From positions 14,527-58,665 of the forward strand of contig CAVIBA010000001.1 of NCBI GenBank assembly GCA_963640785.1: a stretch of 44,139 nt of DNA. Reading direction: 5' to 3'. A program made the translations under genes and the position numbers. This document shows, piece by piece, positions 2,488 through 41,818 of the stretch (positions are counted from its first letter, which is position 1; every line of letters begins with the position of its first letter). Below the pieces are notes generated by a model, which was given only the letters and a program-made list of their open reading frames with translations, made no database searches and was not told the DNA's origin. This stretch comes from Bulleidia sp. (GTDB lineage Bacteria > Bacillota > Clostridia > Oscillospirales > CAG-272).

Positions 2488-4433
2488 GTCGCAATCCCCG
2501 CGAACTGGTTGCTGTACAGCTTGCTGTACTCGCCGCCGAGGGCGAGCAGCGTTTCGTGGTCGCCCGATTCGGCGACGACACCGTCCTTTATGACGACTAT
2601 CTTGTCCGCGTCGCGTATGGTAGACAGGCGGTGCGCGATTATAAGCGAGGTGCGGTTCTTCATGAGCGCGACCATGGCCTGCTGAATATGCATCTCGGTG
2701 CGCGTGTCGACGGACGACGTGGCCTCGTCAAGTATCAGTATCTTGGGGTCAGCGAGCACGGCGCGGGCAATCGATAGCAGCTGGCGCTGTCCCTGCGAGA
2801 GGTTGCTGCCAGACTCGGCGAGCTGCGTGTCGTAGCCGTCGGGCAGACGGTCGATGAAGGTGTCGGCGCGGGCGGTCGCGGCGGCGGCGCGCATCTGCTC
2901 ATCCGTCGCGTCGGAACGGCCGTACTTTATGTTCTGACGTATGCTGTCGCAGAAGAGCACGGTATCCTGAAGCACTATGGCAATGGCGTGGCGCAGGTCG
3001 TCCTTGGGCACGTCGCGGATGTCGACACCGTCGATGGTAATTCGGCCGCTGTCGACCTCATAGAAGCGCGTCAGGAGGTTGACGATGGTGGTCTTTCCCG
3101 AGCCGGTCGCACCGACGATGGCCACCTTCTGTCCTGCCTTCACGTCGAGGTTGAGTCCCTTGAGCACAGGCTCGCCGGGGACGTAGGAGAAGTGAATGTC
3201 GGAGAAGTCTATGTCGCCGCGCACGGAGGCAACGTCAAGAGCGCGGCGACCCTCGTCGATCTCGTCAGCGCTGTCCATTATCTCGAAAATGCGCTCGGCG
3301 CCCGCGAGAGCGGTGAGAATGTTGGCGTACTGGTTGGCGATTTCATTTATCGGGCGGGAAAATTTCTTGGAATATTGCAGCATCGCCTGAATGTTACCGA
3401 CGCTGATGGCGCGCATTCCGCTGGTGGGATTCAGCAGCAGATAGCCGCCGAACGCGGCGATGAGCAGGTACTGAAGGTTGCCGAGAATATTCATCAGCGG
3501 ACCCATAATGCCGCCCCAGACGCGCGCTTTGATGCTGACCTGACTGAATTCCTCGCTCGTCACGCCGAAATCGCGGACGGCCTCGGGCTCCTTGCCGTAT
3601 GCGACGACGGTCTTGTAGCCCGTCACCATCTCCTCGACCTGACCGTTGAGGCGGCCGAGCAGCTGCTGGCGGCGGACGTAGTGCCGACGCATGAATTTCG
3701 CGAGAGTGGACGATATTATTATCGTCAGCGGTATGGTCACACAGGCGACGATGGTCAGCAGCCAGCTGTAGTACAGCATCATGACCAGCGCGCCCACGAG
3801 CGTCAGCGCGCTTGAGAACAGCGAGGTGATGGACTGCGAGACGGCGTTCGAAACGTTCTCGACGTCGTTTGTCATGCGCGACATTATGTCGCCGTGGCGG
3901 TGCGTGTCGGTGTAGCTTATGGGCAGCTTGCTTATCTTGCGGAACAGGTCGCGGCGCATGGTGTAGACGGTCAGCTGCGACAGCTTGGCCGAGATGAGCC
4001 CCTGGAAGAAGGTCAGGACGGCGGTCACGACGAACACCACGGCCATTGTGATGAGGAAGAAGGCCAGTCCGTGCCGCTCCTCGGTGGTGACGACGCCGTT
4101 CTCGTCCGTGACGGTGACGGTGTAGTCGGAAAAATGGACAATAAGTCCGGTTTTGCTTGAATATTCGAAGGTGTCGATGGCGTTGCTCTGAAGCATGGGG
4201 CCGAGCAGCTCGAGCGCCGTGACGGTCAGCATTATCACAAGCATGGATATGAGCGCGACTCGGCTCTTGCCTATGTAGCGTATAAGTCTCGTAACGGTCT
4301 TGCCGGCGTTCTTGGGCTTCTCGGCCGCCATGCGGCCGCCCATGGGTCCGCCGGGGCCGCGTCCGGGACGCCCGCCCGGGCCCATGGTCATGCGGGGCGC
4401 GTTCTGCTCTCTTTTGGGAGGCTGATTATTCAT
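2484..4433 (-). CDS. ABC transporter ATP-binding/permease protein (type I exporter half-transporter, multidrug/lipid type)
   Basis: 649 aa with six predicted TM helices followed by an NBD. Motifs: Walker A GATGSGKTT, signature LSQGQRQ, Walker B ILILDEATS. A Gly/Pro-rich N-terminal extension is present. Confidence 0.9.
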   Translation of the reverse strand: MNNQPPKREQNAPRMTMGPGGRPGRGPGGPMGGRMAAEKPKNAGKTVTRLIRYIGKSRVALISMLVIMLTVTALELLGPMLQSNAIDTFEYSSKTGLIVHFSDYTVTVTDENGVVTTEERHGLAFFLITMAVVFVVTAVLTFFQGLISAKLSQLTVYTMRRDLFRKISKLPISYTDTHRHGDIMSRMTNDVENVSNAVSQSITSLFSSALTLVGALVMMLYYSWLLTIVACVTIPLTIIISSTLAKFMRRHYVRRQQLLGRLNGQVEEMVTGYKTVVAYGKEPEAVRDFGVTSEEFSQVSIKARVWGGIMGPLMNILGNLQYLLIAAFGGYLLLNPTSGMRAISVGNIQAMLQYSKKFSRPINEIANQYANILTALAGAERIFEIMDSADEIDEGRRALDVASVRGDIDFSDIHFSYVPGEPVLKGLNLDVKAGQKVAIVGATGSGKTTIVNLLTRFYEVDSGRITIDGVDIRDVPKDDLRHAIAIVLQDTVLFCDSIRQNIKYGRSDATDEQMRAAAATARADTFIDRLPDGYDTQLAESGSNLSQGQRQLLSIARAVLADPKILILDEATSSVDTRTEMHIQQAMVALMKNRTSLIIAHRLSTIRDADKIVVIKDGVVAESGDHETLLALGGEYSKLYSNQFAGIAT

Positions 4434-17574: not shown

Positions 17575-17940
17575 TACTATTTTCAACTTCAAAACATTTT
17601 TATCCAAAATTTCGCTGAAAAAATGATATTTTTGCGTTTCAAACCTTCATTTTTGGATATTTAGTCAATAACACAGCCGCAAAAAACGGTCAAAACGCGC
17701 CCCGTCGCCTCCCTGCCCTGCGTCACTCCGCCCGGCGGCCTGCCGCCGGGCGGTCGGCCGCCGCAGTCCGGCTTGCTACGTCTTCCAAATCATGGTTGCG
17801 GCACTGCCGCCTCACTCTGCCGTCACAGCGCCGTCACACTGTGGCCGCCGCCGGGCGGCATCAGCGGCGGCGGGTATCATTATAATAATGTGGTCTTTTG
17901 CAAAACGCCCCTGCCAGTGGGTCATTTTCGGGATATGTAC

Positions 17941-17996
17941 CACAAGATATAGGCAAAAACACACAAAAACAAGACCTCGCATCTATATATTGTGTC
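17941..17996 (+). promoter_or_regulatory. Candidate NrdR boxes upstream of nrdG-nrdD
   Basis: catctatatattgtgt (17981-17996) fits the NrdR-box palindrome (acaCwAnATaTwgtgt) well. ccacaagatataggca (17941-17956) fits only on its left half. The centre-to-centre distance of 40 bp is not the classical 31-32 bp. Confidence 0.45.
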
Positions 17997-18020: not shown

Positions 18021-18062
18021 TGTGACTTTGTCACAGAAAAGCAAATTATCTGATGTTATAAT
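18021..18062 (+). promoter_or_regulatory. TGTGAC-N3-GTCACA palindrome plus extended -10 (TGtTATAAT) for nrdG
   Basis: The perfect palindrome occupies 18021-18035 and TGTTATAAT occupies 18054-18062, with no good -35. The palindrome centre lies ~41 bp upstream of the inferred transcription start. Confidence 0.45.
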
Positions 18063-18097
18063 AGCACTGTCGAACGTTTCGGGGGGAGGTGTGTCGT

Positions 18098-18796
18098 ATG
18101 GAGCCGACAATTAACGGGCTTTCCAAGCTCACTCTGCTGGACTTTCCCGGCAGGACGGCGGCAACCGTGTTTCTCTCCGGATGCAATTTTCGGTGTCCCT
18201 TCTGTCATAACGCCCCGCTCGTGACCGAGCTTGAGGGCGCGCAGCACATAAGCTACGCCGAGCTCGAAGCTTTCTTAAAAAAGCGTGCGGGACTGCTTGA
18301 CGGCGTCGCCGTCACGGGCGGCGAGCCGACGCTGCGACCCGAGTTGCCCGATCTGCTCCGCCTCATCCGCCGCTACGGCTACGAGATCAAGCTCGACACC
18401 AACGGCACGCGTCCTGATGTGCTCGCCTCGCTGATTGACGAGGGTCTCGTCGACTACGTCGCCATGGACATCAAAAACTCGCGCGAAAAGTACCCCGCGA
18501 CCGTCGGCTGCAAGACTGTCGACATGGCGGCCATCGAGCGCAGCGTCGGGATGCTGCGCGAGGTGCGCGTTGAGCACGAGTTCCGCACGACGGTGGTGAG
18601 CGGTCTGCACACCGACGCCGACATGGAGGACATCGGCCGCTGGCTGTGCGGCGAGAAGCGGTATTTTCTTCAGAATTTCGTCGACTCGGGCGCGCTTATC
18701 GTACCGGGAACCAAGGGCGTATCCCACGACGACATGCGGCGCTATCTCGACATAGTCCGCAAATATATTCCCTCCGCCGAGCTGCGCGGAATGTGA
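18098..18796 (+). CDS. nrdG: anaerobic ribonucleoside-triphosphate reductase activating protein (radical SAM)
   Basis: Start placed at ATG 18098 (MEPTINGLSKLTLLDFPG), 8 nt after GGGGGAGG. The CNFRCPFCHN radical SAM cluster motif and ~230 aa size fit NrdG. Confidence 0.9.
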   Translation: MEPTINGLSKLTLLDFPGRTAATVFLSGCNFRCPFCHNAPLVTELEGAQHISYAELEAFLKKRAGLLDGVAVTGGEPTLRPELPDLLRLIRRYGYEIKLDTNGTRPDVLASLIDEGLVDYVAMDIKNSREKYPATVGCKTVDMAAIERSVGMLREVRVEHEFRTTVVSGLHTDADMEDIGRWLCGEKRYFLQNFVDSGALIVPGTKGVSHDDMRRYLDIVRKYIPSAELRGM

Positions 18797-18841: not shown

Positions 18842-21238
18842 ATGTACAGAGTCGTTAAAAGAGACGGCAAGATAGCTGATTTCAACATCACCAAAATCAG
18901 CAACGCCATCACCAAGGCCTTCGACGCCATCGAAAAGCCCTACACCCAGAATATCATCGATTTTCTCGCGCTCAAGGTGACAGCCGACTTTGCCCCCAAG
19001 GTAAAGGAGGATCTCATCTCCGTTGAGGACGTGCAGGACAGCGTTGAGGAGGTGCTCAGTCAGGCAGGCTATGCCGACGTGGCCAAGGCCTACATCCTCT
19101 ACCGCCGCAACCGCGAAAAGCTGCGTTCCATGAGCAACACCGTGCTCGACTACAAGAACGTCGTCGACAGCTACCTCAAGGCCGCCGACTGGCGCGTCAA
19201 GGAGAATTCCACTGTCACCTATTCCGTCGGCGGACTCATTCTCTCAAACTCGGGCGCTATCACCGCCAACTACTGGCTCAGCGAGGTCTATGACGACGAA
19301 ATCGCCAACGCCCACCGCTCGGCCGATATACATATCCACGACCTCTCCATGCTGACCGGCTACTGCGCAGGCTGGAGCCTCAAGCAACTCATTCAGGAGG
19401 GACTCGGCGGCATTCCGGGCAAGATTTCGTCGTCGCCCGCCGCACACCTCTCCACGCTGTGCAACCAGATGGTCAACTTCCTCGGCATCATGCAGAACGA
19501 ATGGGCGGGCGCTCAGGCCTTCTCCTCGTTCGACACATACCTCGCGCCCTTCGTCAAGGTCGACAATCTGACCTATAAGGAAGTCAAGCAGTGCATCCAG
19601 TCCTTCGTTTACGGCGTCAACACGCCCTCGCGCTGGGGCACGCAGGCTCCCTTCACCAACATCACTCTCGACTGGACGGTTCCCGCCGACCTCGCCGACC
19701 TCAACTGCATCGTCGGCGGCAAGGAGTGCAGCTTCAAGTACCGCGACTGCGTGGCCGAGATGGCCATGGTCAACAAGGCGTTCATCGAGATCATGATCGA
19801 GGGCGACGCCAACGGCCGCGGCTTCCAGTACCCCATCCCCACCTACTCCATCACCCGCAACTTCGACTGGTCGGAAACCGAGAACAACAAGCTGCTCTTC
19901 GAGATGACCGCAAAGTACGGCACGCCTTATTTCTCAAACTACATCAACTCGGATATGGAGCCGTCGGACGTGCGTTCGATGTGCTGCCGGCTGCGTCTTG
20001 ATCTGCGCGAGCTGCGCAAAAAGTCGGGCGGCTTCTTCGGCTCGGGCGAGTCGACGGGCTCTATCGGCGTCGTGACCATCAACATGCCGCGTCTTGCCTA
20101 CCTTGCCGAGGACGAGGCCGACTTCTACCGCAGACTTGACCGCATGATGGACATCTCCGCCCGCTCGCTCAAGGTCAAGCGGACTGTCATCACCCGTCTG
20201 CTCGAGGCCGGGCTCTACCCCTACACCCGCCGCTACCTCGGCAAGTTTGACAATCACTTCTCGACCATCGGTCTTGTCGGCATGAACGAGGCCGGACTCA
20301 ATGCCAACTGGCTGCGAGCCGACATGACGCACCCCGAAACGCAGGAGTTCACCAAGAACGTGCTGGACCACATGAGAGCGCGCCTGTCCGACTACCAGGA
20401 GGAGTACGGCGACCTCTACAACCTCGAGGCGACTCCCGCCGAGTCCACCTCCTACCGTCTTGCAAAGCACGATGTCGCCAAGTACCCCGACATCATCACC
20501 GCGGCAAAGGACGGCGGAACCCCCTATTACACCAACAGCTCCCACCTGCCCGTCGGCTTCACCTCGGACGTTTTCGAGGCGCTCGACATCCAGGACGAGC
20601 TTCAGACGCTCTACACTTCCGGCACCGTCTTCCACGCCTTCCTCGGCGAGAAGTTGCCCGACTGGCGCGCCGCCGCGACGCTCGTGCGCAAGATTGCCGA
20701 AAATTACCGTCTGCCCTACTACACGCTCTCGCCTACCTACTCGGTCTGCCGCAATCACGGCTACCTTGCAGGCGAGCAGTTCAAGTGCCCCGAGTGCGGC
20801 TCGGACGCCGAGGTTTACAGCCGTATAACCGGCTACTACCGTCCCGTCCAGAACTGGAACAGCGGCAAGGCGCAGGAGTACAAGGAGAGACGCGTATACA
20901 AGCCCGATGCGTCGATCACACACTCCGACCGCACCGCGAACGAGGCCGTCGAGGAGCAGCAGGCGTCCTGCGGATGCGGCTGCACGCACCGCCACACCGG
21001 CCATCGCGTCATTCTGTTCGCGACCAAGACCTGCCCCAACTGCAAAATAGCCGCCGCCAAGCTCGACCGCGCCGGTATCGCCTACGAGAAGATTCTCGCC
21101 GACGACAACCCCGAGGCTGCAACGCAGTTCGGCGTGCGTCAGGCGCCCACGATCGTCGTGGTCGATGGTGAGAACATCGAGAAGTACGCAGGCCCCGGCC
21201 CCGTCCAGAGATTCATCGACGAGGCAGTCAAGGCCTGA
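18842..21238 (+). CDS. nrdD: anaerobic ribonucleoside-triphosphate reductase (class III) with C-terminal thioredoxin/glutaredoxin-like domain fusion
   Basis: 798 aa. It has an N-terminal ATP-cone, a thiyl loop RSMCCRLRL, a Zn ribbon CRNHG..CPECG and the glycyl-radical motif SRITGYYRPV. After these comes an extra 129 aa ending in a CPNC thioredoxin fold (21002-21235). Confidence 0.93.
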   Translation: MYRVVKRDGKIADFNITKISNAITKAFDAIEKPYTQNIIDFLALKVTADFAPKVKEDLISVEDVQDSVEEVLSQAGYADVAKAYILYRRNREKLRSMSNTVLDYKNVVDSYLKAADWRVKENSTVTYSVGGLILSNSGAITANYWLSEVYDDEIANAHRSADIHIHDLSMLTGYCAGWSLKQLIQEGLGGIPGKISSSPAAHLSTLCNQMVNFLGIMQNEWAGAQAFSSFDTYLAPFVKVDNLTYKEVKQCIQSFVYGVNTPSRWGTQAPFTNITLDWTVPADLADLNCIVGGKECSFKYRDCVAEMAMVNKAFIEIMIEGDANGRGFQYPIPTYSITRNFDWSETENNKLLFEMTAKYGTPYFSNYINSDMEPSDVRSMCCRLRLDLRELRKKSGGFFGSGESTGSIGVVTINMPRLAYLAEDEADFYRRLDRMMDISARSLKVKRTVITRLLEAGLYPYTRRYLGKFDNHFSTIGLVGMNEAGLNANWLRADMTHPETQEFTKNVLDHMRARLSDYQEEYGDLYNLEATPAESTSYRLAKHDVAKYPDIITAAKDGGTPYYTNSSHLPVGFTSDVFEALDIQDELQTLYTSGTVFHAFLGEKLPDWRAAATLVRKIAENYRLPYYTLSPTYSVCRNHGYLAGEQFKCPECGSDAEVYSRITGYYRPVQNWNSGKAQEYKERRVYKPDASITHSDRTANEAVEEQQASCGCGCTHRHTGHRVILFATKTCPNCKIAAAKLDRAGIAYEKILADDNPEAATQFGVRQAPTIVVVDGENIEKYAGPGPVQRFIDEAVKA

Positions 21239-21374
21239 CTGTACGCTTAAAAGTCAGCGCACCGCTGACTGACACAGCCAACGGGGCTGTCGGACGCGCA
21301 GACGTTACGACAGCCCCATTGCCGCGTCTGCGGCGGATTGCAACCGAGCGAATCACAACCGAAAGGATTTTCAA

Positions 21375-22280
21375 ATGTACGATATTATCATAATCGGCGG
21401 CGGCCCCGCCGGGCTGACCGCCGCGCTTTACGGTCTGCGCGCCGGAAAGAGTGTGCTCCTCATCGAGCGCAGCGCGTTCGGCGGGCAGATGACCTTCTCA
21501 CCCAAAATTGAAAACTACCCCGGCATTGCCTCATCGAGCGGCAGCGAGATAGCCGACGCCATGGTCGAGCAGGTTCTCGCGCAGGGTGCCGACACCGAGT
21601 TTGACACTGTGACCGACGTCACCAAGACCAAGGACGGCGTTTTTGTCGTGACGGGCGAGGTCGGCAGCTATGTCGGGCGGACTGTCATTGCAGCGGTCGG
21701 CTGCAAGCACCGTCGGCTCGGACTCGAGCGCGAGGAGGAGTTTCTCGGCGACGGCATATCCTTCTGCGCCGTCTGCGACGGTGCGTTCTACAAGGGACGC
21801 GATGTTGCGTTGATTGGTGGCGGCAACTCGGCGCTGCAGGAGGCGATACTGCTCTCCGAGGTCTGCCGCAAGGTGACTGTCATTCAGAAGCTCGACCGTT
21901 TCACGGGCGAGGGGCGTCTGATCGAGCAGGTAAACGCCCGACCGAACATTGAGTCGATATTCAATCAGACCATCGACTCGCTGATTGCCTCCGACAAGCT
22001 CGAGGGGCTGCGCATTCGCTCTGACGACGGCGTTGTCCGCGAGCTTGCCGTCGACGGAATTTTCGTTGCAATCGGGCTCAAGCCCGAGAACGAGCCCTTC
22101 GCCGCCCTCGCCGCGCTCAACGAGTACGGCTACTTCGACACCGACGAGAGCTGCCAGACCGCGACCCCCGGCTTCTACGTTGCCGGCGACTGCCGCTCCA
22201 AGCGCACCCGCCAGGTCACTACCGCCGCCGCCGACGGCACCATCGCCGCCCTCGCCGCGTGCAGGTATTTGGATGATTGA
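21375..22280 (+). CDS. trxB: thioredoxin-disulfide reductase homolog (TrxB-like flavoprotein) lacking the canonical NADPH HRRxxxR motif
   Basis: 301 aa with FAD motif IIIIGGGPAGLTAA, redox dithiol CAVC and a second GGGNSALQEA Rossmann motif. QKLDRFTGE stands where E. coli TrxB has HRRDGFRAE. Confidence 0.88.
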   Translation: MYDIIIIGGGPAGLTAALYGLRAGKSVLLIERSAFGGQMTFSPKIENYPGIASSSGSEIADAMVEQVLAQGADTEFDTVTDVTKTKDGVFVVTGEVGSYVGRTVIAAVGCKHRRLGLEREEEFLGDGISFCAVCDGAFYKGRDVALIGGGNSALQEAILLSEVCRKVTVIQKLDRFTGEGRLIEQVNARPNIESIFNQTIDSLIASDKLEGLRIRSDDGVVRELAVDGIFVAIGLKPENEPFAALAALNEYGYFDTDESCQTATPGFYVAGDCRSKRTRQVTTAAADGTIAALAACRYLDD

Positions 22281-22295
22281 GGGGACACCGGTCTT

Positions 22296-22700
22296 CTGGG
22301 GCGCCGCCCCAGACCCCGCCAAGGGGGCTTTTTGAAAAAAGCCCCCTTGGAACCCGCAAAAACTTTCGGAAAAGGGGATGGCGGTTGGGATATAGTGAAC
22401 GGAAACCGCTCGCTCTCGGGGCGCTGCCCCGAACCCCGCTTAGGGAGCTTTTTGAAAAAAGCTCCCTAAGAACCCGCAAAAACTTTCACAAAAAGGGCGG
22501 GTTAAGGTCTGCGAACGGACGTGATGTACGGTTTTGAGCGTTCAAAACCCAACGTCCCGGCGTTTCGCAAACTTTAACCCGTCCTTTTTCAAAGTTTTCG
22601 CCCGCCTTTGGGGAGGCGGCACGGATCCAACGCCGTGTGGCGTTGGCCGCCGTCCGCAGACGGCGGAACACTCCTTCACTGCCCGCCCGCAAACGCCCCA
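22296..22700. repeat. Family-1 intergenic repeat cluster (two direct 120-bp units plus a diverged inverted unit)
   Basis: Unit: ctcggggcgctgccccgaaccccgc + hairpin ttagggagctttttgaaaaaagctccctaa + gaacccgcaaaaactttc. Hairpins start at 22320 and 22440, exactly 120 bp apart. The right half (22555-22680) is an inverted, diverged copy. The same family occurs at 34730-35560. Confidence 0.8.
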
Positions 22701-34355: not shown

Positions 34356-34670
34356 ATGCAGATCACAGACATTAAGGTAAGAAAGTTATTCGACGAAGGC
34401 CCCATGAAGGCTATCGTCTCAGTGACCTTTGACGGTCAGCTGGCGGTTCATGACATCAAGGTCATCTACGCGCGGGAGAAGTATTTTATCGTTATGCCCA
34501 GCCGCAAGAACCCCGATGACACCTACCGCGATATCGTTCACCCCATCAACGCCCAGTTCAGAGGTATTCTTGAGTCCGCCGTCATCGGCGCTTACGAGAC
34601 CGAGCTGGCCGCTGCCAAACAGGCTGCAGAAGCCGCCGAGGCAGAGCCCGCAACCATTGAAGTTCAGTAA
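34356..34670 (+). CDS. spoVG: septation/sporulation regulator SpoVG
   Basis: MQITDIKVRKL...AIVSVTFDGQLAVHDIKVI...FIVMPSRK..D.YRDIVHPIN matches SpoVG throughout. ATG 34356 lies 9 nt after AGGAGG, while ATG 34350 is too close to it. Confidence 0.9.
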   Translation: MQITDIKVRKLFDEGPMKAIVSVTFDGQLAVHDIKVIYAREKYFIVMPSRKNPDDTYRDIVHPINAQFRGILESAVIGAYETELAAAKQAAEAAEAEPATIEVQ

Positions 34671-34691
34671 TTCGGAACCTCAAACACCCCC

Positions 34692-34719
34692 AAAGCCGCC
34701 CTCCGGGCGGCTTTTTTCG
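34692..34719 (+). terminator. rho-independent terminator of spoVG
   Basis: aaagccgccc-tccg-gggcggcttt followed by tttt. Confidence 0.8.
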
Positions 34720-34729
34720 TGGAGGCGCG

Positions 34730-35560
34730 GACTCGGGGCTTTGCCCCGAACCCCACTCGGGGATGCGTCTCGGGACCATCCCCGAACCCCGCTTAGGGAG
34801 CTTTTTTCAAAAAGCTCCCTAAGAACCCGCAAAAACTTTCGGAAAAGGGACGGGGTAGCGGAATAAAGCAAGCGAAACCCGCTCACTCTCGGGGCGCTGC
34901 CCCGAACCCCGCTCGGGCGGCTTTTGAAAAAGCCCCCGAGACCCCGCAAAACTTTCAAAAAAGCGTGTTAAAGTCTGCGAACGGACGTGAAAACGTTCAA
35001 GTGCGTGCGGTGCGTCATCACGTTATAGACCAGCACCGCCCTGCTTCGCGTGCGGTGTACTGTCGCGGAAAGTTAGTCCGCCTGCGGTGGGCTGCAATGA
35101 TTTAACTGATGTTTGGGCACGCCGTATGGGCGACCATCGGTCGCCCGCCGCTGTGATGCAAGGCAACGTCACTTGAGTAAAGCAAAGAATCGGCTCAAAC
35201 CAAGACTCCCTCCGGGAGGGAGGCATAGTTTACGGTGAAGCTCGCCTTCACCAATAAAGTTACTCTTCCCAGTCAGGGCGGCAACAGCGAAGCGCTTTGC
35301 CGCTGAACCATAACGCAGCGGACGAACGATTCCACCCCGTTCCGAATGGGCACCGGACGCGAAGCAGGGCGGTGCTGAACCATAACGTGATGCCGCACCG
35401 CCTGCACTTAAACGCCCAAAACCTCACGCCCCGGCGTCCCGCAGACTTTAACTCGCCCAAGTTTGTGAAAGTTTCGCCCGCCTTTGGGGAGGCGGCGCGG
35501 ATCCAGAGCCGCGCAGCGCTGGCCGCCGTCCGCAGACGGCGGAACTCCCCTACACGTGCC
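34730..35560. repeat. Family-1 intergenic repeat cluster, second locus (direct units on the left, inverted diverged unit on the right, interrupted by the 411-bp element)
   Basis: Hairpins cttagggagcttttttcaaaaagctccctaag (34792-34823) and ctcgggcggcttttgaaaaagcccccgag (34912-34940) are 120 bp apart. The right part, gactttaactcgcccaagtttgtgaaagtttcgcccgcctttggggaggcgg.., matches 22575-22680. Confidence 0.8.
34999..35409. mobile_element. 411-bp foldback / MITE-like non-autonomous element with ~52-bp terminal inverted repeats and putative 8-bp target duplication
   Basis: The left end aagtgcgtgcggtgcgtcatcacgttatagaccagcaccgccctgcttcgcg matches the reverse complement of 35358-35409 at 46/52 positions. 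It is flanked by aaacgttc (34991-34998) and aaacgccc (35410-35417). The paralogous unit at 22536-22550 reads gagcgttcaaaaccc with no insert. It has no ORF with coding character. Confidence 0.55.
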
Positions 35561-35565
35561 GCACT

Positions 35566-36090
35566 CTACACCCTTCCCCACCCGCACAGAACGCCCGTGC
35601 GGCAGAGATCGACGACGCCGAAGCTGGGCGCGCCGCCGTCGCGCGGCGCGCCGATGGAGCCAGGATTGAAAATATAGAGATTATGGGCAAGCGTCGTGAA
35701 ACCAAGTTGCGTCCCCGCGGGGATGAAGTCTTGGTACTTCACGTGCGTGTGCCCGTAAAGTAGCACATCCGCGTCCACCTCGGCCGCACGCATGATGGCG
35801 CGGTCAAGCCCGCGCTCAACACCCCGCGTGTTGCCGTGAAGCATCAGAATGTTCCGCCCGTCGAGATTTACGACAAGCTCGCACGGCGGCAGCTCGCCGC
35901 CGTCAAATCTGAACATGTCGCAGTTGCCGCGCACGGAGACGAGCGGTGTTTCACCTAAATCCACGTGCCGGAAGTCAGACAGCCCGTCGCCCAGAAATAA
36001 TACCGCGTCCGGTCGCGTCGTCTGGAGCTCGAGCGCCGCGCGTATGTTGTCCGCCCGACCGTGCGAGTCGGATAAAACCAATAGCTTCAT
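35566..36090 (-). CDS. metallophosphoesterase, YfcE/MJ0936 family
   Basis: 174 aa with the MKLLVLSDSHG, GD.., GNCD and GHTH motifs in canonical order. Its ATG overlaps the upstream stop. Confidence 0.85.
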   Translation of the reverse strand: MKLLVLSDSHGRADNIRAALELQTTRPDAVLFLGDGLSDFRHVDLGETPLVSVRGNCDMFRFDGGELPPCELVVNLDGRNILMLHGNTRGVERGLDRAIMRAAEVDADVLLYGHTHVKYQDFIPAGTQLGFTTLAHNLYIFNPGSIGAPRDGGAPSFGVVDLCRTGVLCGWGRV

Positions 36091-37043
36091 ACAGTCGCCG
36101 CCTCGGCTGTCGTCATCGGCAGCGGCTCGAGCTGCGTGCAGCCCTCCGGTACGCAGAACCGCACCGCCCCGCGCTCAACACTAAGCTCAAGACGCTCGCA
36201 GTCCTCAATTTCGCCGTCAATACTGACCGCCTGCGGCGCCGGAAACTCAATGTCAAGCCGGGAACACCGCACAAAATCCGCAATCTCCGACGCGTCACGA
36301 CGCGCAAGGTAGCTCCCGTTCTTGTAAGACGACAGCATCGAGATAAACTTGCGCCGCGTAACGTTCTTGACAAAGCTGACGTCCATCACCCCGTCCGACG
36401 GCGAGGCGTAGGGCTCCGACCGGAAGCCTCCGCCGCAAAAGCCGCCGTTCCCGACACATGTCAGAAGCAGCTCGCGCTCGCAGGGCTCGCCGCCGTCGAC
36501 CGATACGCGCATGCGCACGCCCGGCTTCTTTATCAGCACCTTGATGACCCCGATTATGTACGCCAGCTTGCCCGGCACCAGCGGATTGCCCTTGATGTGC
36601 GCCACCTGACGCACCACCTCGCAGTCAAACCCCGTGTTGAGCATGTTGATGAGGTAGCGCCCGTTATATTTTATGAGATCGATTGGGTGCGTGACACCGC
36701 GCAGCTGCGCCGCCATGTCCATGAACTTCTCGCGCGGCGAAAAGTTGCGGACAAAATCGTTGCCCGTGCCAATCGGTATTATGCCGACCTCGACGTTCGG
36801 AAAGCCCGCCGCGCCGTTCACAACGTCGCACAGCGTGCCGTCGCCGCCGCAGGCGTAAATGCGGACATCGTCCCCCATTGCACAGCGCTCGCGCACGTAT
36901 CGCTCGCAGTCACCCTCGCGCTCGGTGTAGTAAACGGTGCAATCCTCGCCCATCTCGCCGCAGACACGGCGTATCTCCTGCTCAAGGCCGGACTGTGCCT
37001 TTCCCTTGCCCGCGGCAGGATTGATTATAAAACAGTGCTTCAT
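36087..37043 (-). CDS. diacylglycerol/lipid kinase family protein (DagK/YegS-like)
   Basis: Start at ATG 37043 (MKHCFIINPAAGKGKA) after AAAGAGG. It contains the ACGGDGT and PIGTGNDF motifs. Confidence 0.85.
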   Translation of the reverse strand: MKHCFIINPAAGKGKAQSGLEQEIRRVCGEMGEDCTVYYTEREGDCERYVRERCAMGDDVRIYACGGDGTLCDVVNGAAGFPNVEVGIIPIGTGNDFVRNFSPREKFMDMAAQLRGVTHPIDLIKYNGRYLINMLNTGFDCEVVRQVAHIKGNPLVPGKLAYIIGVIKVLIKKPGVRMRVSVDGGEPCERELLLTCVGNGGFCGGGFRSEPYASPSDGVMDVSFVKNVTRRKFISMLSSYKNGSYLARRDASEIADFVRCSRLDIEFPAPQAVSIDGEIEDCERLELSVERGAVRFCVPEGCTQLEPLPMTTAEAATV

Positions 37044-37237
37044 GTGGGACCTCTTTCGTAAGCCCGCCACCCAAATCGGCGGTCTTAATTATTTCTTAAC
37101 ACTTAATTATATCACACCTGCTCCCGTTTTTCAACGTCCAAAAGCTATTTTTCACACAATTCTCACGCCGAGGGGCAAAACGCGCCGCGCGGTCATATAA
37201 TGCTCATGGAAATAATTCTCTGAAAGGAAGCTTAGCC

Positions 37238-37462
37238 ATGCAACTTGACCGTAACGCGCTAAACCGTCTGCTCTCCATGAGCGACACGCAGCTGAAATAC
37301 GTGATAACAAAGCTGGCCGTCGATAACGGCCTCGACCTCTCCACCTTCAATATAAGCGGCAACGACATAAATTCCATCCGAAGCGCCCTCAAAAACGCCA
37401 CCGACCAACAGCTCGAGCTTGCTGCCGAGCAGCTTCGCCGCGGTAAGCAGGGAGGCCGCTGA
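37238..37462 (+). CDS. small hypothetical protein (74 aa)
   Basis: A GAAAGGAAG RBS lies upstream. The composition is non-repetitive and helical-looking. Its stop overlaps the next start (TGATG at 37460-37464). Confidence 0.55.
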   Translation: MQLDRNALNRLLSMSDTQLKYVITKLAVDNGLDLSTFNISGNDINSIRSALKNATDQQLELAAEQLRRGKQGGR

Positions 37463-38256
37463 TGGACGACGGACGCGCCAAGAACACCTCCGGCGACACG
37501 GGCGCACCCGGCGACCTGCTCGGCGCACTGCTCTCGGACGGACAGTTGCTCGAGCGCGTCTCGCAGATAGTGGCCAAAACCCGCGCCGCCGAGTCATCGG
37601 CGGCGGACAACGACACCGCGCCGCACGACTCCTCGCCCTCCAACACACCGCCGCCCGCCATGCCCGACCTCGGCCTGCTCGCGGCACTGCTCGGCGGTAT
37701 GCCCGCTTCTCCGACGCAGGACGCAGATGACAGTCCCGCCGTGCAGGCCGGTTCGGACGCGGCGAGCGAATCCGGAATTAACGCCTCGGCAGCCGGTGCT
37801 TCCGGCACTCCGGTAACTTCGGGCACTTCCGGTGCTTCCGGCACTCCCGACGCTTCAGCCACACCCGGCGCTTCCGTGACCAACGAAGCCAACGACATCA
37901 ATAAAGCCACCGCAGCTTCCGCCGCCCCCTCGGGCACTCCGCCCGACCGTCTCGCCGGGCTCACCTCGCTGCTCACCGACAGCGATTTCATGGCAAAGCT
38001 CCCCGGCGTGCTGTCCATGCTGGTGGGGGGCGGCGGTGGCGGTAAGGACGGCGGCAATGGCGGCTCTGACGGCAAGGACGGCAAAAACGTTCCAAGCGGA
38101 GCCCGCGGCGGGCACGGCGGAGGCCGCGGGGGCGGCGACCGCTGTATCGCCCTGCTCTCGGCGCTCAGACCCTACATGAGTCCGCGGCGCTGCGAGGCCA
38201 TCGACTACCTCATCCGGATGAACCGCATGGGCGACATAATACGCCGCATACGCTGA
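37462..38256 (+). CDS. hypothetical low-complexity (Ala/Gly/Ser/Pro-rich) protein with conserved-looking C-terminal helical motif
   Basis: 264 aa, translationally coupled to the upstream gene. LLGALL / LLAALLGG / LTSLLTD repeats are followed by a Gly-rich tract, then RCIALLSALRPYMSPRRCEAIDYLIRMNRMGDIIRRI. Confidence 0.5.
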   Translation: MDDGRAKNTSGDTGAPGDLLGALLSDGQLLERVSQIVAKTRAAESSAADNDTAPHDSSPSNTPPPAMPDLGLLAALLGGMPASPTQDADDSPAVQAGSDAASESGINASAAGASGTPVTSGTSGASGTPDASATPGASVTNEANDINKATAASAAPSGTPPDRLAGLTSLLTDSDFMAKLPGVLSMLVGGGGGGKDGGNGGSDGKDGKNVPSGARGGHGGGRGGGDRCIALLSALRPYMSPRRCEAIDYLIRMNRMGDIIRRIR

Positions 38257-38273
38257 GCGAAAGGAGAAAACGC

Positions 38274-38924
38274 ATGTACGCAAAAGAATTTCGTCGTCCC
38301 ACGCCGCCGCGGAACTATGGCGGCACGGCCTTCCGCGAGCCGGCTCGCGAGTCGGTTCGCGATACAGGCCGTGAGACCGCCCCGGAAACCTCCCCCGCGA
38401 CGCGCCGGGACGCGCCCTATGCAGCACCCTACCCGGCCTCGCCCTACTTGGCCGCGCCGTCAACGCCGTCGAACACGTCCTCACCGCCCCTGCCGCGCGA
38501 CCTGCTGCCGGAGTCATGTCCCGAGCGGGAATCCGCGACGGGCGATGCGCCGATGGCCGGGGGCTGCCCATCAGAGCCGTCCGCGGCGCAAAATGAGGTT
38601 GAGTCGACGCACGACAACGACCACCATGACGGTTCAAAAGCCGACGGCGCGTCGGTGACGGCCTCCGCGCCCGGCACGGCACCCTCGTCCGGCACATCCG
38701 GCGCGACCTCCGCGTCTGCCGAGACCTCCGCAGGGGCGCACCGGCCGCCCGCCCCCGCTCACGGACTGCTCGGCGCGCTCATCCCACCCGGCCTCGACTC
38801 GGCGCACGGCAACGGTCTCGGCTTTGAGGAGCTGCTTCTGACCGGCCTCATACTGCTGCTCTCGCAGAGCCAGCGCGACAGCGACATCATCCTCATGCTG
38901 GCGCTGCTGCTGTTCTACCAGTGA
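38274..38924 (+). CDS. hypothetical Pro/Ser/Ala-rich protein with hydrophobic C-terminus
   Basis: A strong AAAGGAG RBS lies 5 nt before the ATG. 216 aa. The C-terminal sequence is LLGALIPPGLD..LGFEELLLTGLILLLSQSQRDSDIILMLALLLFYQ. Confidence 0.5.
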   Translation: MYAKEFRRPTPPRNYGGTAFREPARESVRDTGRETAPETSPATRRDAPYAAPYPASPYLAAPSTPSNTSSPPLPRDLLPESCPERESATGDAPMAGGCPSEPSAAQNEVESTHDNDHHDGSKADGASVTASAPGTAPSSGTSGATSASAETSAGAHRPPAPAHGLLGALIPPGLDSAHGNGLGFEELLLTGLILLLSQSQRDSDIILMLALLLFYQ

Positions 38925-39027
38925 CCCGCGCCGCACAATTATTTCCCGGTCGCCGCGGCGTTATTGACAAATTGCGCACGGCGTGCTATACTGAATACAG
39001 CACCTAAAACGGGAGATCAAAGCCAAA

Positions 39028-39690
39028 ATGAAGGAAAAAATAATAAAAATCATACGTGAAATATGCCGTCACCACATAAGCCTGCTGATGCTCATCACGC
39101 TCATCGACCTCGCGCTTCTCGCCGTCGACGAACCCGTGACGCTCTGCTTCGGTATGCTTGCGCCGCAGAGACTGCTGTCGCTCGGCATGGCGGGTCAGGG
39201 CATGGCGGGCGAGGCCAGTCTGCTTGTCTGCGGCTGGCTGACAGCGCTCATCTGCATCGGACTGTTCGCTGTCTGCCTTGCGGGATCGTACAGCCGTCCG
39301 GGCTGGCTGCTCTGCGCCGCCGTCATGACGCTGCTTGACACCACCCTCGCGGTATTAAGCCTCATTGCCTACTCCGACAGCACCTACTATCTCGACATCG
39401 CGGCGCACGTCTGGTGCATCGCCGCGCTCGTGGCCGCCTACATACTCGCGCGACATAAGCCCGCCCGCAAGCTCCCTAGCCTGTCCGACACGAATCCGGA
39501 TAAAATTCTCGAGCAACTCAGCCAAGCTCATAGATTCGGTGGCCCGCATAATATCGATGACCTTGATGACCTTGTAGACCCTGCAGAATTCGAAGAGCCT
39601 GAGGATTTTGAAAAATCGAAGGAGCCCGAAGCGTCCGAAAAGTCCGACGCGTCCGAGGAGTCTGCGGAATCCGAAAAGCCCACAGAATAA
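39028..39690 (+). CDS. hypothetical integral membrane protein with acidic C-terminal tail
   Basis: 220 aa with about 4 TM segments, then EFEEPEDFEKSKEPEASEKSDASEESAESEKPTE. Confidence 0.55.
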   Translation: MKEKIIKIIREICRHHISLLMLITLIDLALLAVDEPVTLCFGMLAPQRLLSLGMAGQGMAGEASLLVCGWLTALICIGLFAVCLAGSYSRPGWLLCAAVMTLLDTTLAVLSLIAYSDSTYYLDIAAHVWCIAALVAAYILARHKPARKLPSLSDTNPDKILEQLSQAHRFGGPHNIDDLDDLVDPAEFEEPEDFEKSKEPEASEKSDASEESAESEKPTE

Positions 39691-39703
39691 CTACATAAAA
39701 ATC

Positions 39704-39740
39704 CACCGGGAGCAGTCATATGACTGCTCCCGGTGTTTTT
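39704..39740. terminator. Bidirectional rho-independent terminator
   Basis: caccgggagcagtcat/atgactgctcccggtg is a perfect 16-bp palindromic stem. It is followed by ttttt and preceded by aaaaat. Confidence 0.8.
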
Positions 39741-39754
39741 ATGCAAATTTTCAA

Positions 39755-41818
39755 TTAAGCGTCCTGAGACTTCTTGTATTCCTCGATAATCTTGACCGCA
39801 ATTTCCTTCGGCACGACGTCGTAGCCCGTGACGTTGAACTCCATCGAGCCCAGTCCCTTGGACATAGCGCGCAGAGCGATCGGGTAGTCCAGTATCTCGG
39901 ACTTCGGAACGGTGAACTGAATGGTCGTATAACCGCTCTTGCCCTCGGCGGGGTTCATGCCCATGACCGAGCCGCGGCGCTTGTTGACGTCGCCCATGAT
40001 GTCGCCCATCAGCGCGTCGGGAACGGTGACGAACAGGTCGCCGACCGGCTCAAGCAGGACGGGGCCTGCCAGCTCGAGGCACTTCTTGTAAGCCAGCTGT
40101 GCTGCGGTCTTGAAGGAGATTTCATCCGAGTCGACGGGGTGGTAGGAGCCGTCGTACAGGTCGGCAGCCAGATGCACCATCGGGAATCCGGCAACGCCCT
40201 TCTGCATAGCGTCAAGCAGACCCTTTTCGACAGCGGGGTTGAAGTTCTTCGGCACGGTGCCGCCGACGACGGAAACTGTGAAGGTCAGACCCTCGTCCTC
40301 ACCGGGCGCGAAGCGGATCTTGACGTGACCGTACTGACCGGAGCCGCCGTTCTGCTTCTTGTGCTTGCCCTCGACGTCGACCTTCTTTGTGATCTTCTCA
40401 CGGTAAGGAATCTTGGGCGTCTCGAGCTTGATGGTAACGCCGAAGCGCGACTTCATCTTGGCCGCCAGCACCTGCAGGTGCATGTCGCCCAGACCTGCGA
40501 TGGTCATCTGCTTGGTCTCGCCGTTGTTTTCGAACTTAAGCGTGCGGTCTTCCTCGAGCATCTTGGTGATGGCCTGAGAAATCTTGCCCTCGTCGCCCTT
40601 TGCTGCCGGCATCATAGCCTGAATCATGTAGGGGTTGGGGTAGTTGACCGGTGCGTAGGCGATAAGGTCGCCGCCGCAGAGCGTATCGTTGGTGTTGGTA
40701 TTTGTGAGCTTTGCAATCATGCCGATGTCGCCGCAGGCCAGCTCGTCGACTTCAGTCTGAGCCTTGCCCTTGACAGTGTAGATGTGCGCCATCTTCTCTG
40801 CCGTCTCGGTGTTGGAGTTGGTGAGCACCATATCCTTCTTGAGCGTGCCCTGCATGACCTTGAAGAAGGACATCTTACCGACGAACGGGTCGGCAACCGT
40901 CTTGAACACGAAAATGTTTGCGACGGAGCTGTTCTTGTCGATGTCTATCTTGCTGCCGTCAGCCAGCTTTTCCTGCTTGCGGGCGGTGAAACGCGGGAAG
41001 GATGCTGCGATAGCGTCGAGCATGACGCCGAGTCCCCACAGCATGGTGGCGGAGCCGCAGTAAACGGGAACGATGTCGCCGTGGATGATACCCTCGTGCA
41101 GCGCCTCGGCGGCCTCGTCGTGGGTGATCTCCTCGCCGTTGAAGAACTTCTCCATCAGCTCCTCGGACGTGCCTGCGAGCGCCTCGTTGAGTGCGTCCTT
41201 ATAGGAAGCGGCGATCTCCTCGAGCTCGGACGTCATGGGAGTCTCGGAGCGCTTGCCCTTTGCGTCGTACTTGTACGCCTTCATCTCGATAAGGTCGATG
41301 ATGGTGACGTCCTTGCCGTTCTTGACGGGAATAGCGACAGGGCAGACGGGAGTGCCGAACTTGTCGTGCAGCTCGCCGAAGACGCGGGCGAAATCGGCCT
41401 CGTTATCGTCGCACTTGTTGACGAAGAAGGCGCGCGGAATGCCCGCATCGGAGGCATAGCCCCACGCGAGCTCTGTGCCGACCTCAACGCCGGCCTTTGC
41501 GTCGACAGCGATGACGGCGCTGTCGGCAACGCGGAGCGCCTGAAGCACCTCGCCTACGAAATCAAGGTAGCCGGGAGTGTCGAGCAGATTGATCTTTATA
41601 TCCTTCCACATGATGGGAGCTACGGCTGTGGACAAAGAGAAACCTCTTTTGATCTCCTCCGCATCGTAGTCACAGACGGTATTTCCGTCAGCTGTCTTTC
41701 CGAGTCTGTCTGTGCCGCCGCCTATGTAAAGCATAGCCTCGGCGATTGATGTTTTTCCGCTTCCTCCGTGTCCGAGTAAAGCAACATTTCTGATGCTGTT
41801 GGTTTCGATTTTAGCCAT
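39755..41818 (-). CDS. elongation factor G paralog (EF-G2-type translational GTPase)
   Basis: 687 aa. G1 is GHGGSGKTS rather than AHIDAGKTT, as in Thermus EF-G2. It also has DTPGYLDF and NKCD motifs and EF-G domains II-V. It stands alone, outside a str operon context. Confidence 0.88.
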   Translation of the reverse strand: MAKIETNSIRNVALLGHGGSGKTSIAEAMLYIGGGTDRLGKTADGNTVCDYDAEEIKRGFSLSTAVAPIMWKDIKINLLDTPGYLDFVGEVLQALRVADSAVIAVDAKAGVEVGTELAWGYASDAGIPRAFFVNKCDDNEADFARVFGELHDKFGTPVCPVAIPVKNGKDVTIIDLIEMKAYKYDAKGKRSETPMTSELEEIAASYKDALNEALAGTSEELMEKFFNGEEITHDEAAEALHEGIIHGDIVPVYCGSATMLWGLGVMLDAIAASFPRFTARKQEKLADGSKIDIDKNSSVANIFVFKTVADPFVGKMSFFKVMQGTLKKDMVLTNSNTETAEKMAHIYTVKGKAQTEVDELACGDIGMIAKLTNTNTNDTLCGGDLIAYAPVNYPNPYMIQAMMPAAKGDEGKISQAITKMLEEDRTLKFENNGETKQMTIAGLGDMHLQVLAAKMKSRFGVTIKLETPKIPYREKITKKVDVEGKHKKQNGGSGQYGHVKIRFAPGEDEGLTFTVSVVGGTVPKNFNPAVEKGLLDAMQKGVAGFPMVHLAADLYDGSYHPVDSDEISFKTAAQLAYKKCLELAGPVLLEPVGDLFVTVPDALMGDIMGDVNKRRGSVMGMNPAEGKSGYTTIQFTVPKSEILDYPIALRAMSKGLGSMEFNVTGYDVVPKEIAVKIIEEYKKSQDA

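Follow-up and report, generated by a model that had tools for sequence, protein, structure and literature searches.

We analyzed a 44,139-nucleotide stretch of a genome assigned to Bulleidia sp. (assembly GCA_963640785.1, contig CAVIBA010000001.1, positions 14,527 to 58,665 of the forward strand), the whole of which we call the window, and found that it encodes a class III ribonucleotide reductase (RNR), NrdD, with a thioredoxin-fold redoxin fused in frame to its C-terminus. The gene belongs to one three-gene unit, in which nrdG, nrdD and a trxB-like gene follow one another head to tail on the + strand with gaps of 45 and 136 bp. What we established directly is how the domains are arranged, to which class the catalytic residues belong, how far fusion and gene order are conserved and which states the motifs have; from these observations we infer the transfer steps and the ultimate donor of a chain that probably runs from NADH through the TrxB-like reductase and the tethered redoxin to the active-site disulfide of NrdD. 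An earlier note, made from the letters of this DNA, had already proposed a candidate reductant chain built from these components, and its coordinates for open reading frames (ORFs) and motifs were all exact when we re-read the sequence.

The family matches of the nrdD product exceed their cutoffs and identify it as a class III RNR. Against a cutoff of 548, model NF006126 reaches 1128.5 bits over residues 2-687; TIGR02487 gives 511 where 326 is required, and the NRDD core of Pfam covers residues 121-686 (E = 5.4e-189). The marks of the class are present, namely the glycyl-radical motif R-x-x-G-Y, the Zn ribbon and a neighboring radical S-adenosylmethionine (SAM) activase, whose sequence matches TIGR02495 (NrdG2) at 209.6 bits (cutoff 131) and also Radical_SAM of Pfam. 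A HMMER alignment with the sequence of the Thermotoga maritima NrdD structure 4COI pairs the finger loop MCCR at 380-383 with SCCR at 328-331. All 68 aligned relatives, the set behind the residue counts given here, have this loop unchanged, as do 119 of 119 close homologs, while Cys175 is kept in 67 of the 68 relatives and Glu529 in every one; the latter position holds Leu or Tyr in the aligned formate-type enzymes of Prevotella copri and phage T4. According to Aurelius 2015 and Wei et al. 2014 (via PMC4493059), NrdD2 enzymes are defined by a third Cys beside the thiyl Cys and by the active-site Glu, and some members also have the Met. Both defining residues occur here. Of the pattern of the formate-dependent NrdD1 enzymes, a single-Cys MGCR loop with no Glu, just the Met is shared. 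These residues assign the active site to the thiol-dependent NrdD2 type, in agreement with what the earlier note had proposed. The double-Cys enzymes with an MCCR loop, which make up 83% of all double-Cys enzymes, appear equipped for formate or thioredoxin, and their reductant is described as an open question, because residues for both formate and thiol chemistry are present (Burnim 2022).

As the NF006126 model stops at residue 687, about 111 residues of NrdD are extra to it. They comprise a linker (ASCGCGCTHRHTGH at 20963-21004) with a Cys/His cluster, and a compact domain that passes the gathering thresholds of both Glutaredoxin (residues 723-777, 29.0 bits, gathering 22.9) and Thioredoxin (residues 721-791, 25.7 bits, gathering 23.5) in Pfam. 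Modeled alone by AlphaFold 2 (AF2) from a 32-sequence alignment, the tail reached a predicted local distance difference test (pLDDT) value of 94 and took the order beta-alpha-beta-alpha-beta-beta-alpha, a minimal thioredoxin fold of glutaredoxin/NrdH size. A Foldseek search with this model returned thioredoxins at the top (TM score 0.7-0.79, probability 1.0), matches that are generic and leave the subfamily unresolved. The motif T-x-T-C-P-N-C and the Q-A-P loop are invariant in the relatives, including C731, C734 and P769. The predicted fold and the domain matches thus place the tail in the thioredoxin-fold superfamily, and together with its conservation they bear out the in-frame redoxin that had been read from the ORF. 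In a full-length AF2 model, whose mean pLDDT was 63 with a poorly modeled core owing to a too shallow alignment, residues 697-719 fell below 50 and are predicted to be disordered, and residues 721-798 scored 80-89; we used this model solely for the disorder of the linker and the order of the tail.

The nearest relatives of the tail in sequence-profile searches of the PDB were the C-terminal CPYC units of the Pyrococcus protein disulfide oxidoreductase or "glutaredoxin-like protein" (1J08, 1A8L), followed by thioredoxins, MJ0307 (1FO5) and NrdH. Assignment to the NrdH-redoxins was rejected, as the dithiol is CPNC and not C-[VMI]-Q-C, TIGR02194 scores 20.9 with a cutoff of 85.75, and the operon is of class III and not class Ib nrdHIEF. 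The Cp9/YruB and Grx3 families were rejected as well (TIGR02196, 26.3 with a cutoff of 88.55; TIGR02181, 19.4 with a cutoff of 90; CPNC and not CP[YW]C). The description that fits the tail best is a small CPNC redoxin, unclassified and attached by a disordered tether. In the relatives the linker varies in sequence and measures 27-53 aa. Among 96 close homologs, 39% have at least two linker Cys (as CGCGC, CSC, CCC, CCCC or CAC) and 49% have none, and the Cys frequency is 3.2% in the linker compared with 1.5% in the core. The Cys/His cluster is, by this comparison, a facultative feature, and where present it could bind a metal or act as an extra dithiol shuttle. In the representative library, the related protein P0123 (309 aa) shows an unusual architecture of repeated redoxins: two CPNC domains, nearly identical, with tandem "DACDGTRILGTAKAEP"-like repeats between them.

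The fusion is widespread. The 120 best database homologs, 77-98% identical and almost all 783-816 aa long, come from hundreds of independent contigs, in many independent assemblies labeled Oscillospiraceae, Ruminococcaceae, Acutalibacteraceae or Eubacteriales; most of them carry a precomputed Glutaredoxin or Thioredoxin match of Pfam. A scan of species representatives (one genome per bacterial species) gave at least 600 pattern matches and at least 599 confirmed relatives, and our counts of tails and gene neighborhoods in related genomes refer to the best 80 of these at least 599. All 80 align through residues 773-798 and hence include the tail. Carriers include metagenome-assembled genomes labeled Faecalibacterium, Ruminococcus sp. 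CAG:382 and the cultured Anaerocolumna aminovalerica DSM 1283. The earlier note had asked whether an assembly error might have joined two genes; the frame is continuous in these 80 relatives and in ~120 protein clusters, and with independent genomes agreeing we rejected that explanation and regard the fusion as real. A tail-only word-index search gave two matches and no evidence of a free-standing ortholog of the tail. The better match, P0121 (73 aa), was rejected as a truncated NrdD tail at a contig end, because its contig (L081:1-260, Logan SRR19415682_192163) starts with the Illumina adapter AGACGTGTGCTCTTCCGATCT; a TrxB of the QDL class follows it. A search of the representative library with the tail returned 718 matches, for the most part short ORFs representing fragments or small redoxins that are unrelated, and is unusable as a census since clustering at 50% identity collapses the fusions. 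Two proteins with internal exact duplications of NrdD, P0002 (950 aa) and P0053 (816 aa), were left out of the alignments; the duplications are most likely assembly artifacts in the source metagenomes.

The same MCCR and Glu type of NrdD occurs in viral contigs of IMG/VR (L086-L165), and ~38 of the 80 best viral loci have the tail. The viral fusion tails carry CPNC and in some cases CPKC, CPRC, CPGC or CHNC, and many of the viral copies lack the ATP-cone. No TrxB homolog was found within 4 kb of the fusion copies in these 80 loci. One of the contigs, L100, holds a genuine phage replication module with a single-strand annealing protein (SSAP), a helicase, NrdG, the NrdD-thioredoxin fusion and an exonuclease; its NrdD (L100:3983-6001) has 672 aa and a C-terminal thioredoxin domain. 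In another viral locus, L151, a CPNC redoxin segment (4016-4168) lies upstream of, or N-terminal to, an NrdD core that begins at 4249, an order that matches the "Glutaredoxin:NrdD" tabulated by Rozman Grinberg 2018.

In cellular genomes the reductase accompanies the fusion. A TrxB homolog lies directly downstream of nrdD in 67 of the 80 related genomes, with a spacer of 7 to ~250 bp in nearly all, and an nrdG homolog lies upstream in ~68 of the 80 loci, so that the reductase is indeed the conserved operon partner it had been taken for. The window's protein is a full-length Pyr_redox_2 protein (E = 7.4e-41) that keeps the FAD motif GGGPAG (GxGxxG), the CAVC dithiol (CxxC) and the pyrophosphate motif GGGNSALQE (GGGxxAxE) found in thioredoxin reductases that depend on NADPH (NTRs). 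Its best PDB matches are NADPH-dependent reductases (E = 5.5e-68), to which it aligns end to end with a full-length nucleotide domain and no deletions. Two hallmarks of the NTRs are absent: the TIGR01292 score, 312.7 bits, is under the cutoff of 343.45, and VxxxHRRDxxR reads VTVIQKLDRFT. Aligned with the real E. coli TrxB sequence, QKLDRFTGE takes the place of HRRDGFRAE, which confirms that HRRxxxR, the motif for the 2'-phosphate of NADPH, is missing. In addition, where canonical reductases have G[R/K]G for thioredoxin docking, this protein has GDG.

We then compared the 68 adjacent TrxBs, that is, the 67 from related genomes and the window's own. All 68 keep CA[VLI]C and GGG[ND]xA. At the HRR site, 17 have the canonical HRRxxFR and 51, the window's included, have a motif of the type Q-(N/D)-L-x-x-(L/F/M)-T-G-E. 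Within this Q class, 50 of 51 members fit Q[ND]Lxx[LFM]T, and the pocket is conserved at 98% for Q, 96% for N/D, 96% for L, 100% for T, 98% for G and 100% for E, compared with a protein average of 0.69; GGGN[ST]ALQ[ED]A is essentially invariant. The window's protein is atypical in having Lys172 at the R176 position, where the class normally has Asn. This pattern suggests that the motif is under selection and that the site continues to bind a ligand. Since so strongly conserved a motif stands in the place of HRR, the NADPH 2'-phosphate clamp was replaced and not simply lost; of the earlier description of a lost NADPH motif, the absence of HRRxxxR stands and the word "lost" does not. The docking motif in the Q class is GNG, GEG or GDG, which suggests a changed partner surface and fits a dedicated, non-canonical partner.

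The intact pyrophosphate site, with HRRxxxR exchanged for Q-(N/D/K)-L-x-x-x-T-G-E, makes NADH or relaxed NAD(P)H the most likely donor, and we lean toward it. The second-best PDB match, 7JYP, reads VQNLPYLTA at the HRR site and is a Thermosipho reductase (its identity is 99% with P0273 and 91% with the T. melanesiensis protein). Other Thermotogae share the Q motif (VQLLETLTA in Thermotoga sp., VQNLPKLTA in Kosmotoga), while Marinitoga and Petrotoga keep HRR; the window's protein has the same combination of GGGxxA and Q-x-L-x-x-[LF]-T. The T. maritima reductase is reported to prefer NADH over NADPH (Valette 2017, citing Yang & Ma 2010; PMC5627308), and NADH users conserve the pyrophosphate motif and lack HRR (Valette 2017). 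The E. coli enzyme AhpF, which uses NADH, aligns with GGGNSG kept, no Arg triad and LLEFAPEMKA at that position, and a clostridial NADH-dependent thioredoxin reductase (TrxR) homolog is paired with a small glutaredoxin (Grx)-like redoxin in Cp34/Cp9 (PMC3720550). Our literature search found no published cofactor assignment for the Q-N-L...T motif class represented by structure 7JYP. Plain NADPH as the donor appears improbable to us.

The earlier note had read the reductase as independent of pyridine nucleotides and of the ferredoxin type. If it were fed by ferredoxin or flavodoxin, like the FFTR and TRi enzymes, it would tie the synthesis of deoxyribonucleoside triphosphates (dNTPs) to low-potential fermentative carriers, and the missing HRRxxxR, the low TIGR01292 score, the several non-NADPH TrxBs of Clostridia and a host that, going by its taxonomy, is a ferredoxin-rich anaerobe would all fit. 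We nonetheless consider such a donor unlikely and did not retain that part of the note. FFTRs lack both GxGxxA and HRRxxxR, and Desulfovibrio TRi has GEGxxAxN as its pyrophosphate motif and TQ/NGK instead of HRRD; where these enzymes lose or degrade the pyrophosphate motif, GGGNSALQE is intact in the window's protein and invariant in its clade, in a nucleotide domain that has the full length of the NADPH-dependent enzymes. The FFTR 6GNA matches at E = 2.8e-33 and 5J60 at 4.6e-41, far weaker than the NADPH-dependent reductases, so that by match strength the protein does not cluster with FFTRs. Cyanobacterial FFTRs carry a C-terminal Trp tail, an aromatic residue that stacks on FAD (PMC12796991); the C-terminus here, ...AACRYLDD, is level with or shorter than that of E. 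coli TrxB and has no aromatic tail, in disagreement with the cyanobacterial FFTR/DTR type; QKLD and the intact GGGNSALQE likewise disagree with the Desulfovibrio TRi motifs. The window contains no ferredoxin or flavodoxin gene. Moreover, the absence of HRRxxxR has misled before: the T. acidophilum reductase, which lacks it, was initially taken to be independent of nucleotides and turned out later to use NADH.

Two further explanations concern what the tail and its neighbor do. The redoxin might not be the turnover reductant at all: it might keep the Cys of the Zn-ribbon and glycyl-radical domain reduced for activation by NrdG, or repair oxidative damage, with formate as the reductant through Met380 and Cys175. 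The tail is attached right after that domain, Met380 is invariant, the enzyme is oxygen-sensitive and its hosts are gut anaerobes, and thioredoxin activates the formate-dependent class III RNR of E. coli according to Lundin 2015 (citing Padovani 2001). We find this doubtful, because the invariant Cys382 and Glu529 mark thiol chemistry and are unneeded in the formate mechanism, and a reductase of its own in the operon seems to us excessive for occasional activation. That the TrxB homolog is a housekeeping NADPH thioredoxin reductase which stands beside nrdD by chance, the tail being one of its many substrates, is very improbable in our judgment, even though 17 of the 68 neighboring copies keep HRRxxFR, Lys172 occupies the R176 position of the window's protein and phage fusions work with no adjacent TrxB; no fewer than 67 genomes at species level keep the gene order, most copies have another motif in place of G[R/K]G, and in 51 of 68 the Arg triad is swapped for a different conserved motif.

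Under the chain that we favor, the three genes would form an operon for thiol-dependent anaerobic deoxyribonucleotide synthesis. NrdG would install the glycyl radical on Gly664 of NrdD, which would then reduce ribonucleoside triphosphates by means of Cys175 and the finger-loop Cys381/Cys382, with Glu529 as the base. Each turnover would leave a disulfide in the active site, between Cys175 and either Cys381 or Cys382, and the CPNC redoxin would re-reduce it directly or, in some members, through the Cys cluster of the linker. The oxidized CPNC would in turn be recharged by the CAVC dithiol of the TrxB homolog, reduced by FAD that has taken its electrons from NADH. A free thioredoxin would be dispensable, as NrdD brings its own 78-residue redoxin on a tether of ~33 residues. 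The components do stand together as the earlier note had said; "self-contained" overstated the case, since the activase needs a one-electron donor of its own and phage copies come with no TrxB nearby. Several points weigh against this chain and should be kept in view. The finger loop retains Met380, the residue used by formate-dependent enzymes, and enzymes with an MCCR loop may accept either reductant (Burnim 2022). The full-length AF2 model is too poor to place the tail relative to the active site. With the Thermotogae enzymes the window's TrxB homolog shares ~37% identity, which does not exceed its identity with NADPH-dependent reductases, so the Q-x-L...T motif may be convergent; the 17 of 68 adjacent TrxBs with HRRxxFR imply that the clade does not use one and the same donor throughout, and with Lys at the R176 position the window's protein could have partly retained its affinity for NADPH. 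The phage copies also imply that an adjacent TrxB is not obligatory. Lastly, we found in the literature no biochemical characterization of an NrdD-redoxin fusion, its sole mention being one table entry, that of strain TWA4.

A broader and more tentative proposal, which we would not put higher than possible, is that MCCR class III RNRs are dithiol-driven and that a large clade of them, in gut Clostridia and their phages, has internalized the reductant as a C-terminal relay arm, fed by an NADH-run TrxR subclass with the Q-N-L...T motif, with the linker Cys as a shuttle in about half of the members. In that reading the linker Cys cluster would correspond to the pair of C-terminal Cys found in RNRs of classes I and II.

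The positions of all these features are collected in Table 1, together with those of the flanking elements discussed below it.

Table 1. Positions in the window of the three genes, of domains and motifs in their products and of predicted regulatory or repeated elements
Feature	Position	Strand	Remarks
nrdG	18089-18796	+	class III RNR radical-SAM activase, 235 aa
nrdD	18842-21238	+	class III RNR with fused C-terminal redoxin, 798 aa plus stop
ATP-cone	18848-19117	+	residues 3-92, allosteric activity domain; Pfam PF03477, 75.2 bits
Cys175, beta-A "bottom-face" cysteine	19364-19366	+	aligns with T. maritima NrdD C125
Finger loop Met380-Cys381-Cys382-Arg383	19979-19990	+	thiyl-radical Cys and extra Cys; codons of the Cys-Cys doublet at 19982-19987
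Glu529	20426-20428	+	putative active-site base of thiol-type NrdD; NLEATPAE, T. maritima NIE(495)QVPAE
Zn-ribbon C636-x2-H639...C649-x2-C652	20747-20797	+	invariant in relatives; lines up with the region of the Zn site in T. maritima
Gly664 glycyl-radical site	20831-20833	+	in SRITGYYRPV, codon GGC; invariant in relatives
Linker	20903-21001	+	residues 688-720, ~33 residues, flexible
Cys/His cluster of the linker	20963-21004	+	CGCGCTHRHTGH
Thioredoxin-fold redoxin	21002-21235	+	residues 721-798 (78 aa); CPNC dithiol 21032-21043 (C731, C734); cis-Pro loop Q-A-P769
trxB-like gene	21375-22280	+	low-molecular-weight thioredoxin-reductase homolog, 301 aa
FAD motif GGGPAG	21396-21413	+	trxB-like ORF
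GDG at docking site	21747-21755	+	trxB-like ORF
CAVC dithiol	21765-21776	+	trxB-like ORF
Pyrophosphate motif GGGNSALQE	21816-21842	+	trxB-like ORF
QKLDRFTGE at HRR site	21885-21911	+	trxB-like ORF
Weaker NrdR half-match	17940-17955	+	upstream of nrdG
Candidate NrdR box	17980-17995	+	CATCTATATATTGTGT; upstream of nrdG, 3 mismatches
Palindrome TGTGAC-TTT-GTCACA	18021-18035		perfect
Extended -10-like element	18054-18062	+	TGTTATAAT; 27 nt before the nrdG start codon; predicted
nrdD-trxB spacer hairpin	21279-21321	+	14-nt arms, no T-run after; no call in terminator scan
Two ~80-nt repeat copies	22298-22497	.	85% identical, start-to-start 120 nt, just after trxB
Hairpins in the repeat copies	22319-22350 and 22439-22470		perfect 15-bp hairpins with T/A runs, one per copy; CCAAGGGGGCTTTTT / AAAAAGCCCCCTTGG

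Upstream of nrdG, CATCTATATATTGTGT is the window's only match to ACACWATATATWGTGT at up to 3 mismatches; by chance 0.13 would be expected, and a match also arose in 13 of 100 shuffles. Of 69 related loci, 33 have good NrdR-type palindromes upstream of nrdG, which is suggestive of ordinary NrdR control of the RNR operon. A consensus scan of the + strand gave no full -35/-10 pair at TGTTATAAT. Between the NrdR-like box and this -10 element lies a perfect palindrome that resembles Crp/Fnr- or Rex-type operators. We rejected it as an operator of the family, as a similar palindrome is present in just 1 of 69 related upstream regions and is therefore not a family feature. No promoter-like or terminator-like call was made between nrdD and trxB in the window, and strong hairpins follow trxB, so transcription would read through from nrdD and nrdG, nrdD and trxB are likely to be co-transcribed. 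The repeats after trxB are probably bidirectional terminators of the operon, a predicted function, or else a small repeated intergenic element.

The genes that surround the unit belong to an ordinary chromosome of the spore-forming Firmicute type. Upstream of the unit there is a divergent oligopeptide ABC transporter, downstream are a sulfatase and cinA, and a SpoIVB peptidase, a Mur ligase, RuvX, TatD and MetRS are encoded farther out. Among the window's genes there are none for formate metabolism, and searches of the window for riboswitches, RNAs and tRNAs gave no matches. A segment at 34429-41749 has a lower GC content, with GC at third codon positions of 0.57-0.61 compared with 0.75-0.85 elsewhere, and holds large ORFs with no Pfam match (35946-37061, 37855-38697 and 39608-41749, the last of 713 aa); it may be a foreign or mobile island.

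The fused redoxin and the disulfide reductase of the operon are strong genomic evidence for thiol chemistry in MCCR class III RNRs, and with all components within ~4.2 kb the unit is a convenient experimental system. A C-terminal redoxin contradicts the textbook view, in which class III RNRs form no external disulfide and have no C-terminal cysteine motif that could act as a relay (Lundin 2015). The hosts include dominant gut anaerobes, labeled Oscillospiraceae, Acutalibacteraceae and Faecalibacterium, whose dNTP supply may thus depend on the chain. The TrxB partner points to a conserved cofactor-motif class of thioredoxin reductase, Q-N-L...T, that has a solved structure in 7JYP, and the phage fusions with no TrxB suggest a compact, host-independent way of plugging a viral RNR into the host redox pool.

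Among known systems, the operon of the Methanosarcina barkeri NrdD3 reportedly encodes an NrdH-like redoxin and a ferredoxin:disulfide reductase. It would thus resemble the unit described here as an RNR operon equipped with a small redoxin and a disulfide reductase of its own, and is said to differ in that its NrdD lacks the Glu, its NrdH-like redoxin is free and its reductase is of the [4Fe-4S] FTR type and not a flavoprotein. On the side of the reductase, the clostridial and cyanobacterial FFTRs (6GNA, 5J60) share the low-molecular-weight TrxR fold, CxxC, FAD and the absence of HRRxxxR with the window's protein, and FFTRs too occur in Clostridia. Unlike it, they lack GxGxxA, the crystallized clostridial chains are shorter, at 288-294 residues, and the cyanobacterial enzymes end in the Trp tail. 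The Thermotogae TrxRs (7JYP; T. maritima) are closer in motif, low-molecular-weight enzymes with an intact GGGxxA and Q-x-L-x-x-L-T for HRRxxxR. According to PMC5627308, the partner of the T. maritima enzyme is a Grx-like redoxin of the protein disulfide oxidoreductase type with a T-P-T-C-P-Y-C-like motif, which resembles the window's tail. The Thermotogae TrxRs differ in keeping G[R/K]G, are not known in an nrdD operon, have a free two-domain protein as partner and reach ~37% identity. Cp34/Cp9/Cp20 of Clostridium pasteurianum likewise form a clostridial operon in which a TrxR homolog, NADH-dependent there, and a Grx-like redoxin of 75-80 aa serve one target (PMC3720550); that target is a peroxiredoxin, and the redoxin is free and mostly CP[YW]C.

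On the side of the RNR, the NrdD2 enzymes of Neisseria bacilliformis and T. maritima are reduced by thioredoxin and thioredoxin reductase (Wei et al. 2014 via PMC4493059, PMC9669993, PMC4390871), and T. maritima NrdD needs a protein of >10 kDa from cell extract (Aurelius 2015). The window's NrdD shares with them the extra Cys by the thiyl Cys and the active-site Glu and, as we predict, a dithiol-protein reductant recharged by a flavoprotein disulfide reductase. In those systems the redoxin is separate and the genes were not reported as a cassette, whereas here the redoxin is fused, the reductase is in the operon and the loop is MCCR and not SCCR. A glutaredoxin-fold domain fused to an RNR subunit is also known from Facklamia ignava, where the Grx domain of Grx::ATP-cone::NrdB is an efficient RNR reductant (Rozman Grinberg 2018, PMC6187632); that system is of class I and depends on glutathione, and its domain is fused N-terminally to the radical subunit; the fusion described here is C-terminal on NrdD. 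The RefSeq survey of the same study lists one Glutaredoxin:NrdD protein, from Lachnospiraceae bacterium TWA4 and of subclass NrdDd, in a table only (PMC6187632). In our literature searches on NrdD combined with glutaredoxin, thioredoxin or redoxin domains, neither a C-terminal NrdD-redoxin fusion nor an nrdG-nrdD-trxB cassette turned up as described or characterized, in agreement with the earlier note, which knew of no characterized fusion. Compared with the tabulated protein, the type found here is C-terminal, carries CPNC, is paired with a TrxR-like gene and occurs in hundreds of species. An NrdD2 that depends on thioredoxin and thioredoxin reductase, an operon with redoxin and reductase for NrdD3, as reported, and a Grx fused to a class I RNR subunit as its reductant were thus already known, and beside them the fusion and its cassette are widespread, coherent and, in principle, unsurprising.

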